Of a stretch of 64,000 nucleotides of DNA, positions 51,200 through 55,381 are shown in pieces. The position numbers were made by a program, and so were the translations under genes. The stretch lies in the IMG/VR virus record IMGVR_UViG_3300023371_000005, one strand, 5' to 3'. Each line of letters opens with the position of its first letter. Within the stretch, counting starts at the first letter, position 1. Below the pieces are notes generated by a model. The model saw nothing but the letters and a program-made list of their open reading frames with translations. It searched no databases and was not told the DNA's origin. The stretch comes from a virus. Lineage: Duplodnaviria > Heunggongvirae > Uroviricota > Caudoviricetes.

Positions 51200-54100
51200 T
51201 TAGCCTGCTGCAGGTGCATCTGGAGCAGAACCATTAATACGAGGATTGATGTATAAACAGTCGGTGCCGTCATCAACAGAACCATCCTTTTTATATTTTA
51301 CACATACACTATGAAAACCAGCAGGTAAAACACCAAGATCTGCTGTGAAAACAGTATATGGGCTACCACTAGTACTCAATAAAACATTAGTAGAGTCAGT
51401 AGCATTTGTTGTAGAGAAGTTAGCTCCGTCTACTGTACCTATTAGACCAAAATCATATGTAGATTCGCCAAAGCAATAAACATCTAAATACATATGATCG
51501 AAGCCATTGCATCGATAATATACTCTAGTAAGAGCTGCACTATTTGATACAAATCTATTATTAGACCAATAAGGCCAAGAAGAATCGCCAGAGCTTTCAA
51601 AGTTATAGCTTGCTCCACTAACATCCTGGAGATAGTAGTAAGATTGTATTCCAACCCAAGGTGTGATATCAGAACCGCCAAAACGCACATGGATACCACA
51701 AGTATCTTCACCATTATATACGCTGCCATCTTTTAGATACTTGACATAAACTGTATGAGTACCTGCTGATAAAACGCCCAAATCAAGTGTACCAGAACCA
51801 TTTATGCCTCTTAAATTTAGGGCAACTCCACTAGAATCTACTGTGTTAGTTGTTGATAATGCTGCACCATTAGCAGTACCAATTAATGCATAATCGTAAT
51901 TATATTCAGAGCTTTGATAATAATCAATATAGACATTATCAAGTCCATTTGCGCTAATTGTAATTACAGATACTGCAGCAGTACCATCCTAATACATATT
52001 ATTTGGAACATACCAACTATATGCACCATAATTGAATGGATTATATATAAATTGATAAGTGCCACCAGCGGAAGCAAATGAATAAGAAGAGTTTAAAACG
52101 GCTGGTAGACTAGATAAGAAATTAACTTTGAATTGTAAGCTATCATTATTATCATTCTCTGAACCATCTTTTCTAAATTTAGCATAGAAAGTCATTTTTC
52201 CGTATTTTTTACCATAACTGACACGATAAACACTTTCTCGATTGATTGTTGCAAAACTTTGCTGAACATTAGTAGTATCTACAGTATTAGATGCTGATAA
52301 AGTACTTCCACTAGTTGATAATATTCCATAATCAAAGCCAGCTTCAGCATAGTTAATACAATCTAAAACAATATATCTACTATAACGAGAAATAACAGTT
52401 ACTTTAGCCAAAGCGTAAGAACTATTAACACCCTGGTTATTACTTTCATAATATCCATCACTATTTAATACAAAAGTATATGTAGAGCCACTTACCGGTT
52501 CAACGGTTACTGAATCATATCTATAACCAGGACTTTGAATTGCAGCAGTTTCAGTACGAACTCTAAACTGGATACAATCATCAAAATAATTTCCAGAAGC
52601 GTCTTTACGATATTTTATATAATAAGTATAAGTACCTGCACTTAAAACGCCTAAATCAACAGTTGTTAAAGTATCACTAATATTTTGATAACTTGCTAGA
52701 ACGTTAGAAGTGTCGATTGTATTTGAAGTAGATAAAGTTCCTCCACTAACAGAAAGTAAACCAAAGTCAACACTAGATTGAGAAGATTGCCAAGCATCAA
52801 TATAAATATGATCTACTCCATTTGCGGCAATGGTTAATTTACCTACAGCGGCACTACTTGCAATTCCACGGTTATTAGAGTAATACCAGCCACTAGAATA
52901 AGTAAAGCCATAAGAAGCGCCACTAACAGAAGAATAAGTGCAACTAGAATTTAGAACAGATGGAACAGAATCTACAAATGTAACTTTGAATATCATACTA
53001 TCTGCACCAACCGCGCCTGAAACGTCTTTAATAAATTTTACATCAAAAGTATGTGTTCCTGCAGTTAATTTACCGAAATTTACTTTCTTAATAGAACGAG
53101 CAAATCCATCTCCAGTATCCGGTTGAGAAATTACTGTATTCATCTCTGGATTAGCAGAAGCAGTAAAAGTGGTATCAATAGCAGAGATTGAACCATAATC
53201 GAAATAAACTTCACTATCACATTTATATTCAACAACTACATACTTGGTGCCATCTGTTGTAACAGTTGTACGAGCTAAAGCGTAAGATTCATCTACGCCT
53301 TTATTATTACTTTCATAATATCCAGAACCATTATCAACAAAAGTATATGTAGAGCCACTAACAGAAGCAACTGTATAACCATTAGTATATGTTGGTGTCT
53401 CAGGCTCTGGTTCAGGTAAATCGACATTGATATACGCAGGGATATAAGACATATAATCTACGCCATCTTCAACAAAAGCATAACCAATATTTTCATTAGT
53501 ATATTCAGCAGTTGGAGTACCAGAGATTTGGAAAGTAAATGTCTGACTTGCACCAGCCGCGATTGTAACAGCAGAAGTTACTGTCTGATTACTAGAATTT
53601 TTAATGACACAAATAACACCTGGATAATCTCCATCATTAACCAAAGCTTCAACAGTAACAGAGCCAGAAGCATTACCAATATTAGAGACTGTAAAAGTAT
53701 TATGTTGTGATGTCCAACTACCATTCGAATAAGAGAATGTCATTCTTGTATTCGCCCAAGTTGTATCAAATTCTGCTTTTGGAGTGACAACAGGAGCGTT
53801 AGAAGTATAAACATACTTTAAGGCAGGAGTCCATTTATTATTAGTATAAATGAACATATTGGTTGCTGCACGCCATACAGCGTATAGAATAGTAATACCG
53901 CCATTAGTGGAGTTTAAAGTAGAAATACTTGCGCCATCTGTATAATCGGCAGAAGTTGCAGTTGAACTAGTTGCCCAACCTACAAATGTAGCACCATTCT
54001 TTGTAAATGTATTTGTTCTTAGATTAGAAGCAACTCCATATGTATGGTTAGACTCAGCCATAGTACCGCTACCGCCATTTGAGTCATATCTTACTTTGTA

Positions 54101-55381
54101 AGTATTTCTCGCAACATTAGCAGTATATGTTGTACTTGAAGTAGGAGCAGTCGTTGGATAAGACGCATTATAAGATAAAACTGTGCCAGAAGCATTGGTC
54201 CAGCTTACAAAATGCCAACCAGATTTTAAGGGCTGATTCAGAGTAATGTTTGCTCCTGGAGTTAATGTACCGCCACCAGTAGGAGCATATGTACCAGTCC
54301 AATTTTCGCTATTAGCAAGAGTTAAAGTAATTTGATTTAATGTCCATTGTGCAACTAGAGTCTCACTTGTGGACGATGGACGATATGAAGCACCAGCAGC
54401 ATAAGTTGTACCATTTGGAGCTAACCATCCATTAAAAGTATAATTTGTTCTAGATGGTGTGGGTAATGTAACTGTTCCAACAGTACCGTTACTTGTAGTG
54501 TAATTTGCAGTAACTGTACCAGTTGCGGTAAAAGTTGCTACATTACTTGAATTTATTGTAATACTTGTATTACTAGGAGTCCAACTAGAAAAAGGATATG
54601 TGGTAGTTCGAGTTGCTGTCTTAGTTGTTGGAGAGACTGTACCACTATTAGGATTAAATGTAACCGTATATGTTGTTGTTGTACTCGCTTTAGTTGGAGT
54701 ACCTAAAGATTTAGTATTATTTGTATACTTAGTAGTTGCGGTACCCGCAGTATAATCAGCATAATAATATACATCAGCAGTAGTAGAACGACTTGCACTT
54801 GCTGCATAATCGGTAGTACCAGAGGTTAAAGAGCTTGGAGTGTAAGTGCTTGTTCTTTCATCCCATCCAGAGAAAGTATAAGTAGTACTAGTATATTTTG
54901 TACCGCTCTAAGTGACATTGGCACTTCCATTATTATAATTAACAGTTAAAGTAATTGTTGAACTATTAGAAGTAATAGTATTAGAACCAGGAGATGCTCT
55001 TAGTGTAAAACTAGGAGATGATCTACTAGAATATGTTTGTCTAGTGTAAGTAGTAGAACCAGAACTTGGATAGTAATAATAAGCCCAAGCAGTACCTGTC
55101 CATCCAGCACCTTCAGTTACGTTCTTAACCCAGTCGAAATAGTTCCATGTACCAGACCAAGTCGCAGAATAACCGAAGCTGCCGTTTTGCCAATATCCGA
55201 TCCATTCGGGGTTGCTACCTTCAACAGCAGTTGCCCAAACCCAGTCACCAGTAGAACCAGAATAACGCTAAATGGTACTGTATCCAGTACCAGGACCTGT
55301 TCTTTGCCAAGGTTTAGTTGTACCATTAGGAGCATATTCCCAAATAGAATACCAAGTACCACTATTCCATGATAAGGCCAT
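51200..55381 (-). CDS. tail fiber/receptor-binding protein, 1394 codons, Listeria-Bacteroides (Flg_new) Y-x-F-x-GW repeats and C-terminal repeated modules; three in-frame TAGs (55268-55270, 54908-54910, 51989-51991)
   Basis: Strong SD AAAGGAGGAAACAATA before ATG 55381. One continuous frame runs into track ORFs 51989..54061 and 51200..51781. Repeated YTF(S/N)GW motifs; C-terminal repeats DLGVLSAGTYTYYIKYRKD, DLGVLPAGFHSVCVKYKKD, LGVLSAGTHTVYVKYLKD. Confidence 0.8.

Follow-up and report, generated by a model that had tools for sequence, protein, structure and literature searches.

Published precedents for the recoding of phages under genetic code 15, in which TAG is read as glutamine, reportedly include work by Ivanova and colleagues in 2014. 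Gut phages that reassign TAG to glutamine encode suppressor tRNAs and limit the recoding to late genes (Yutin 2021, PMC7886860). Borges 2021 (bioRxiv 10.1101/2021.08.26.457843) found lysis, tail and intron-endonuclease genes recoded and replication genes kept in the standard code, described a low guanine-plus-cytosine (GC) route to recoding, and, for the ~150-210 kb clades Jade, Sapphire and Agate, reported recoded modules in scattered positions. Glutamine at TAG has been proven by proteomics in two crAss-like phages (Peters 2022, PMC9523058), and a further code-15 group carries tRNA-Sup-CTA genes (PMC10607447); code-change proteins such as release factor RF2, glutaminyl-tRNA synthetase (GlnRS) and other aminoacyl-tRNA synthetases are optional, and occur in a minority of code-15 phages. 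Here we analyze a 64,000-nt stretch of Caudoviricetes DNA (IMG/VR record IMGVR_UViG_3300023371_000005; hereafter the window, meaning the whole stretch), in which TAG codons fall inside the genes for an endolysin, a tail-fibre-like protein, homing endonucleases and a diversity-generating retroelement (DGR) with its reverse transcriptase (RT). The phenomenon is already published and validated by proteomics in other phages, and this phage is a further instance of it.

Very probably, this is a phage with two coding regimes, in which TAG is translated as glutamine by a phage-encoded tRNA(CUA) under genetic code 15. With the described code-15 gut and rumen phages (crAss-like, Lak, and Jade/Sapphire/Agate) it shares lysis, tail and homing-endonuclease genes that contain TAG next to replication genes that keep to the standard code, TAG positions that align with glutamine, a preference for TAA and avoidance of TAG as terminator, a tRNA(CUA) within a tRNA array, and a genome size of 130-210 kb with scattered recoded modules as in Jade, Sapphire and Agate. 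It differs from them in that only ~10-18% of its genes contain TAG, below the reported clade means of 26-71%, that its most recoded gene is the DGR RT, and that no RF2/synthetase code-change module was seen in the window. The phage phAss-1 of the proposed Phassvirus (PMC10607447; OQ749652) likewise uses code 15 and has multiple tRNA-Sup-CTA genes, but its genome is unrelated, with no protein or DNA match to the marker gene of the window, and ~40% of its annotated open reading frames (ORFs) are recoded, including TerL and portal (PMC10607447).

TAG codons within translated genes

When only TAA and TGA were treated as stops, the window yielded ~82 non-overlapping minus-strand genes, the strand on which nearly all its genes lie, and these end in TAA (62) or TGA (19), in line with an earlier note on this DNA that had described about 80 stops as almost all TAA or TGA. 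Bridging TAG fused many fragments obtained with translation table 11 into long ORFs, and placed 29-36 in-frame TAGs in 8-15 genes, the range being set by the gene set used (Table 1). Off frame, the coding strand has 0.075 TAA or TGA per codon, which excludes chance for open frames as long as 381 to 1393 codons: the likelihood of a TAA/TGA-free ORF in non-coding sequence is ~e^-108 for 1393 codons and ~e^-30 for 381. The earlier note's counts of three TAGs in the tail-fibre gene, two in the endolysin, eleven in the RT and five in a 142-aa gene were exact, and the GIY-YIG and homing-endonuclease genes, which it said also contain TAGs, have three and two. Homologs of the latter gene (the HNH/DUF2726-like gene of Table 1) on L088 and L092 contain many TAGs too.

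Protein domains continue across these codons. With TAG bridged, the endolysin matches Pfam Phage_lysozyme2 (residues 3-165) and Peptidase_M15_3 (199-296), each as one match across a TAG, and its second TAG does lie between the motifs SGYRCPVHN...GDAADI and FTHVDTRD. Similarly, RVT_1 covers RT residues 70-250 in a single stretch over TAGs 94, 134, 165 and 228. Table-15 profile coverage, which had been proposed as a check for four families, was informative for Peptidase_M15 and RVT_1; Flg_new matched the tail-fibre-like gene at residues 428-488, with no TAG inside, and FGE-sulfatase remained unmatched. The tail-fibre-like gene instead offers its repeats: a module of ~145 aa occurs five times, TAG-1131 lies 47 residues into one copy, and when that copy is aligned with the other four (E 5e-35 to 3e-14) the match continues through the TAG with the register kept.

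Comparison of the endolysin with its 97% identical counterpart on L096, in which both TAGs of the window are kept, gave synonymous/non-synonymous codon differences of 20/1 before TAG-104, 25/1 between the two TAGs and 80/53 after TAG-262, indicating purifying selection downstream of each TAG. At codon 110, which is AAG (Lys) in the window, the L096 gene (L096:1801-3459) carries a further TAG; very close strains thus differ by the gain or loss of TAG codons. Taken together, domain continuity, repeat register, purifying selection and the scarcity of TAG terminators confirm the earlier note's view of TAG as a sense codon, in the lysis, tail-fibre-like, DGR and homing-endonuclease genes.

As a terminator TAG is essentially unused in the window. 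Two ORFs had been listed as ending at it, and one of these was a misreading: the codon at 17559 is TCA in relatives L096 and L097, where the same 84-aa ORF reaches the same TAA, ruling it out as a terminator and making it a sense codon. The other, at 21571, is still a candidate stop and is considered below.

Glutamine at the TAG columns

The two most conserved TAG columns hold glutamine. At endolysin column 104, all 80 homologous DNA loci from IMG/VR have a glutamine codon (CAG 66, CAA 14), corresponding to Q in 52 of 52 unique sequences. At RT column 253, Q is found in 76 of 80 homologs, two of the rest being TAG themselves, and in 56 of 58 unique sequences. Within the window, DGR target genes 1 and 2 are 59% identical over their full length and both TAGs of target 2 align with Q; the codons are exactly those of the paralog comparison made earlier, GAG-TAG-TTT and TTA-TAG-GCC in target 2 against GAA-CAA-TTT and TTA-CAA-GCT in target 1. 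A homolog of target 2 on L087 has TAG at the second of these columns as well.

To rank residues, we summed BLOSUM-based log-odds over 12 TAG columns, which gave Q 2.9, K 2.2, R 1.1, E 0.2, Y -4.3 and W -10.1. On column evidence, therefore, glutamine is well supported as the best candidate for the amino acid at TAG, lysine is a weak second, and tryptophan and tyrosine are excluded. The conserved Q columns, the paralogous CAA codons and the worst scores of W and Y all agree with the prior choice of glutamine over tryptophan or tyrosine. The suggested search for Q or E at the TAG columns of homologs succeeded at endolysin 104 and RT 253, and found most other columns variable. The five TAG columns of the 142-aa gene are uninformative because its protein matched only contigs of the same phage in IMG/VR.

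The suppressor tRNA

No tRNA was detected in the window by ARAGORN or Rfam, and the Rfam scan of the window found no RNA family at all, including no group I intron near the homing endonucleases. The expectation that a tRNA(CUA) would be encoded elsewhere in the phage was borne out on an overlapping contig. Using a 37-mer from the right end of the window as probe, we obtained three IMG/VR contigs, from samples 3300018430, 3300018493 and 3300022654. L093 and L094 are 100% identical to window positions 60971-64000, and L095 matches 63619-64000 at 100% identity and L093 at 99.99% over 7.3 kb. L095 reaches 14.5 kb past the window, and ARAGORN detects ten tRNAs on its gene strand, among them a tRNA(CUA) at L095:4633-4707, on the same strand as the genes and ~9.8 kb beyond coordinate 64000. 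Rfam scores this gene as a tRNA at 51.5 bits, and its fold is a cloverleaf in which position 1 stays unpaired. A tRNA(CUA) is thus present in the same phage population as the window, and would decode TAG as glutamine. Relatives L085 and L086 (68% identity in the marker protein) have two tRNA(CUA) genes.

L095 also carries, directly upstream of the array that holds the suppressor, a match to the ROOL RNA (RF03087; L095:1-577, gene strand, 277.9 bits, listed at about 23.9-24.5 kb past the right end of the window), truncated 5' where the contig stops, and a marginal, partial OLE-like match (L095:6152-6241; 52.9 bits against a gathering score of 50). At L095:11163-13542 a Ro60/TROVE-like gene, recognized by eye, apparently has behind it, or inserted into it, a TAG-containing gene for an HNH-like endonuclease from the family seen at 44526..45320 and 41480..42217 of the window.

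For the origin of the suppressor, sequence searches gave little: BLAST against annotated phage tRNAs returned weak matches to tRNA-Trp, tRNA-TERM, Lys, His and Phe, and BLAST in E. coli genomes found nothing. Its anticodon, variable and T arms, the anticodon itself being unconstrained, were then made into a search pattern for bacterial loci, and all 120 hits proved to be Bacillales tRNA-Trp(CCA). These 120 loci contain 1420 tRNAs, on which we trained per-isotype profile hidden Markov models (HMMs), which, together with controls, replaced a comparison by global identity, as the reference set was biased. The suppressor scored 44.7 bits against the Trp model (39.7 with the anticodon masked) and at most 13.8 bits against other isotypes (at most 14.9 masked), a Trp score that is inflated because the pattern used to pick the reference Trp set came from the suppressor itself. 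Of the phage tRNAs run as controls (Thr, Leu, Ser, Cys, Gly, Lys), most were assigned to the correct isotype. CUA suppressors of other phages, which the reference-set bias affects less, also scored best as Trp: both of those tested from phAss-1, that of Lak-A1 (only one of its two CUA tRNAs gave an HMM score), that of L008, and one of two from L085. The first phAss-1 suppressor, 83% similar to the present one over the 3' half, scored 38.6 bits as Trp-type, whereas its authors report a tRNAscan-SE isotype of Gln (PMC10607447).

Relative to tRNA-Trp, the suppressor has CUA for CCA (C35 to U), a U1·U72 mismatch and G73. Set against the identity elements tabulated in PMC9976931, it has G73 and G2-C71, common to the Trp and Gln sets; U1, G10, U35, A37 and a weak 1-72 pair, which are Gln-like; and U72, G4-C69, G5-C68, C34 and A36, which are Trp-like, while the Gln determinants G3-C70, G36 and U38 are absent. 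A close known parallel is su+7, the amber suppressor of E. coli trpT: with the same C35-to-U change, tRNA-Trp(CUA) loses recognition by tryptophanyl-tRNA synthetase (TrpRS) and is charged by GlnRS (PMC2965240, PMC9976931), inserting glutamine at UAG (Yaniv et al. 1974, as cited in PMC2965240 and PMC9976931). Because su+7 is charged in this way, a Trp-like body can be reconciled with glutamine columns, and we infer that the phage tRNA(CUA) would likewise be charged with glutamine, whether by GlnRS or by ND-GluRS plus GatCAB. The two share a tRNA-Trp body, the C35-to-U change, the CUA anticodon and G73; the phage tRNA differs in having U1·U72 for A1-U72, C3-G70 and C9, in being a natural, selected gene where su+7 is a laboratory mutant, and in that its host may lack GlnRS.

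In several of the sampled CUA suppressors the first base is U, the 1-72 pair is weakened and base 73 is G. With some reserve, and at rather less than even chances, code-15 amber suppressors could be derivatives of tRNA-Trp (CCA to CUA) rather than mutated tRNA-Gln, both in this phage and in the four other sources sampled, namely phAss-1, Lak-A1 and the two IMG/VR contigs that L008 and L085 come from. If so, TAG would mean glutamine in these phages for the reason that applies to su+7: with U35 and G73, and with its first pair open, a Trp-type tRNA would become a substrate for the Gln-charging route of the host. Among ~45 window proteins inspected by Pfam or by eye, we found no release factor or aminoacyl-tRNA synthetase, only a free-standing YqeY-like protein. 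In GatB and in Deinococcus GlnRS, the YqeY-like family forms the tail that binds tRNA(Gln) (PMC1865053, PMC2811023), and this GatB-tail protein could possibly assist glutamine charging; a role in the code change, or in charging the CUA suppressor, is speculative.

Alternative readings of TAG

Several observations weigh against TAG being decoded as glutamine by a phage tRNA. Most TAG columns are variable, homologs showing K, A, V/I, Y, D/R or T and not Q, and lysine has the second-best total score. The 120 closest endolysin proteins in the database all have Q at column 104, but we discarded them as evidence: the closest at least were translated with code 15, so their Q comes from TAG and adds no independent support. 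The suppressor lies not on the window but on contigs from other samples that overlap it, and its body resembles tRNA-Trp, not tRNA-Gln, by a reference set biased toward the query. Both glutamine charging and the timing model discussed below are predictions. Finally, the ORF at 21571..21843 may terminate at TAG, as read-through would add 31 codons overlapping the next gene (an AAA_33 kinase) out of frame.

Were the TAGs true stops, the interrupted genes would have to be read as pseudogenes, as split genes or as mobile DNA decaying in low-GC islands, a reading that gains from the clustering of TAGs in genes of low GC that may have been acquired horizontally, such as the DGR and homing endonucleases, and from the degraded appearance of an RT with 11 TAGs under code 11. 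Yet the fragments stay in a single frame without TAA or TGA over up to 1393 codons, Pfam domains cross the TAGs, synonymous changes outnumber non-synonymous ones 25 to 1 between those of the endolysin, and the TAGs are conserved in relatives; moreover, an essential endolysin is affected, the variable repeats of the DGR show active-looking A-directed diversification, and a cognate suppressor tRNA is present. We regard true stops as effectively refuted. Decoding by the host, whether through a code-15 host or through pyrrolysine, is just as improbable: ARAGORN does label the suppressor 'Pyl', though from the anticodon alone, and the tRNA matches the general Rfam model with a standard cloverleaf fold, the TAG columns are of Gln rather than Lys/Pyl type, no pyl-like genes occur among the scanned window proteins, and core phage genes that lack TAG and use CAG fit a standard-code host, such as published code-15 phages infect (bioRxiv 10.1101/2021.08.26.457843).

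Insertion of lysine, alone or ambiguously with glutamine, deserves more attention, although we consider it improbable. Amber suppressors with U35 are often mischarged by lysyl-tRNA synthetase (LysRS), and their insertion of lysine is noted in a review (PMC9976931); three RT TAG columns are dominated by K in homologs (43/60, 39/60 and 25/60); and K trails Q only by 2.2 to 2.9 in total score, with the additional TAG of L096 standing at a window AAG codon. The invariant columns nevertheless hold Q in all 52 (endolysin 104) and in 56 of 58 (RT 253) unique sequences, both paralog codons are CAA, and proteomics found glutamine in other code-15 phages (PMC9523058). The tRNA itself also points away from lysine, for it has G73, where LysRS identity needs A73 and G73 moves suppressors toward glutamine insertion (PMC9976931). 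Tryptophan, inserted by a tRNA-Trp derivative still recognized by TrpRS, is less probable again. The body does score as tRNA-Trp, and G73, G2-C71, G4-C69, G5-C68, C34 and A36 are Trp determinants (PMC9976931), but W is the worst fit over the TAG columns (-10.1) with no W-conserved column among them, C35, a major TrpRS determinant, is mutated, U1·U72 replaces A1-U72, and E. coli tRNA-Trp(CUA) loses TrpRS recognition (PMC2965240). Glutamine thus remains the preferred assignment.

Two coding regimes

Genes with TAG have a mean GC of 0.335 compared to 0.418 for the others (Mann-Whitney p=0.0017), and choose different glutamine codons: TAG-bearing genes use CAA and TAG-free genes CAG, with CAA 1 and CAG 30 in the gene for a protein like the major vault protein (MVP). 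The RT is the most heavily recoded gene, with glutamine-type codons distributed as TAG 11, CAA 10 and CAG 0, and has 23% GC in a window of 40%, which suggests that it came from a very AT-rich recoded phage, or that there is strong selection for suppressor dependence. Recoding is concentrated in lysis and structural-type genes. The TAG-free genes include those for the A and B subunits of gyrase or topoisomerase IV, NAD-dependent ligase, PhoH, an RNA-ligase-like protein, NAMPT, a sigma-70 factor and Thg1, together with further NAD-salvage enzymes and thymidylate synthase recognized by eye. In relatives, core genes are TAG-free as well, and TAGs occur only in a DGR target and homing endonucleases.

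On this division, the high-GC, CAG-using genes for replication, transcription and NAD metabolism, which have the look of early genes, would be readable with the standard code of the host, and the low-GC, CAA-using ones (endolysin, tail-fibre-like protein, DGR, homing endonucleases and small ORFs) would need TAG decoding. Full-length TAG-containing proteins would then be made only once the suppressor is expressed, so that suppressor dependence would delay lysis, tail, DGR and homing-endonuclease expression to late infection. Such a delay of late genes through recoding has been proposed by Borges et al. (bioRxiv 10.1101/2021.08.26.457843) and Yutin et al. (PMC7886860).

The diversity-generating retroelement

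Two modules, each with a template repeat (TR), variable repeat (VR) and target gene, flank the single RT. The mismatches between TR1 and VR1 and between TR2 and VR2 are located at TR adenines in the alignments. TR1 and TR2 are only ~68% identical to each other; a conserved 63-nt repeat lies downstream of each TR. With phage DGRs of the BPP-1 Mtd type the element shares an RT, TRs, VRs at the 3' ends of the targets, adenine-specific differences and an Mtd_N-domain protein nearby. It differs in its two TR/VR/target modules with one RT, in the TAG recoding of the RT and one target, and in the targets themselves, where Pfam finds no C-type-lectin domain and, at E<=0.01, no FGE-sulfatase domain.

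The closest RT relatives in IMG/VR (L002-L007, 44-52% identity) contain in-frame TGA, mostly where the present RT has Gly (positions 71, 115, 180, 184, 261 and 266), the signature of code 25 (TGA to Gly). Another homolog, L058, has TGA at a Trp column and is code 4-like, and L008, L049, L054, L055 and L061 contain in-frame TAG. Judging from these sequences, phages that use three different recodings seem to pass this RT lineage around.

Gene content and relatives

Table 1. Features of the window, with in-frame TAG positions where present
Feature	Coordinates	Strand	Details
GIY-YIG homing-endonuclease-like gene	4362..5321	-	TAGs 5238-40, 5205-07, 4971-73
Multidomain endolysin, 556 codons	14541..16211	-	TAGs 15900-15902 (codon 104), 15426-15428 (codon 262)
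84-aa membrane protein gene	17496..17750	-	internal sense TAG 17559-17561
SPFH/band-7 protein	18404..19936	-	Pfam
Zinc-ribbon ORF	21571..21843	-	ends at TAG 21571-21573; only candidate TAG terminator in the window
SPFH/band-7 protein	22898..23842	-	Pfam
NADAR domain	25663..26106	-	Pfam
NAMPT	27458..29239	-	by eye from translation
YqeY-like protein	30832..31341	-	TAG-free, high-GC set; Pfam PF09424, E 8e-9, profile 2-141/143
RNA ligase-like protein	34751..36214	-	Pfam
Sigma-70 factor	38035..38940	-	Pfam
Thg1 tRNA-His guanylyltransferase	40684..41469	-	Pfam
HNH/DUF2726-like endonuclease gene	44526..45320	-	TAGs 45210-12, 44634-36
MVP-like protein, 833 aa	48569..51070	-	Pfam MVP_shoulder E 8e-22, Vault_3
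Tail-fibre-like / adhesin gene, 1393 codons	51200..55381	-	TAGs 55268-55270 (codon 38), 54908-54910 (codon 158), 51989-51991 (codon 1131)
63-nt conserved repeat	56757-56819		downstream of TR2
TR2	56868..56993	-	paired with VR2, 57079-57204, 3' end of target 2
DGR target gene 2, 397 codons	57062..58255	-	TAGs 57632-57634 (codon 208), 57602-57604 (codon 218)
DGR RT, 381 codons	58536..59681	-	11 in-frame TAGs
63-nt conserved repeat	59800-59862		downstream of TR1
TR1	59903..60041	-	paired with VR1, 60087-60225, 3' end of target 1
DGR target gene 1, 408 codons	60070..61296	-	no TAG; CAA codons 207 (60676-60678), 217 (60646-60648)
142-aa gene, function not assigned	61303..61731	-	5 in-frame TAGs; no Pfam match
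409-aa Ala-rich, coiled-coil-like protein	61833..63062	-	one TAG, 63030-63032
Mtd_N-domain protein	63093..63554		near DGR; Pfam

Between 18404 and 41469 of the window (minus strand) lies a host-like auxiliary gene set that, by eye, also includes NAD synthetase, NMNAT-like, Sir2-like and macro-domain proteins. The MVP-like protein is a homolog of eukaryotic major vault protein, followed by a long Ala/Glu/Gln-rich coiled-coil tail. It is present in all relatives, 64-88% identical to proteins on IMG/VR contigs of 130-177 kb and 39% identical to proteins of LR756500-503 (phages of 462-735 kb), while endolysin relatives are found on contigs up to 211 kb. The window stems from a large phage of gut or rumen type, of roughly 130-210 kb, distantly related to the huge phages LR756500-503 via the MVP-like gene. 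When 37 kb of the window was searched for near-identical DNA in 50,697 phage records, there was no match, and no terminase was found in the window. The 402-kb record IMGVR_UViG_3300032167_000002 (L089, L090) has two MVP-like copies, 85% and 74% identical to that of the window, and is probably a chimeric assembly or a concatenation of two related phages.

Implications

This phage and its relatives need annotation with table 15; otherwise the endolysin, tail-fibre-like protein, RT and homing endonucleases appear fragmented and pseudogene-like. Conversely, Q residues in the database proteins of close relatives, already translated with code 15, are unusable as independent evidence for glutamine. 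The window is a clean two-regime example, of a regime type that published models link to delayed lytic functions, and brings into the two-regime picture a DGR in whose RT gene TAG outnumbers each of the standard glutamine codons. What the present analysis adds is the location of the suppressor, the correction of 17559 to a sense codon, the caveat on code-15 database proteins and the RT as the most recoded gene. The Trp-type suppressor and the YqeY-like protein are leads, not conclusions. Even so, the former is a testable lead on the origin of the glutamine meaning and, if true, Trp-derived suppressors would explain mechanistically why phages that recode TAG converge on glutamine.

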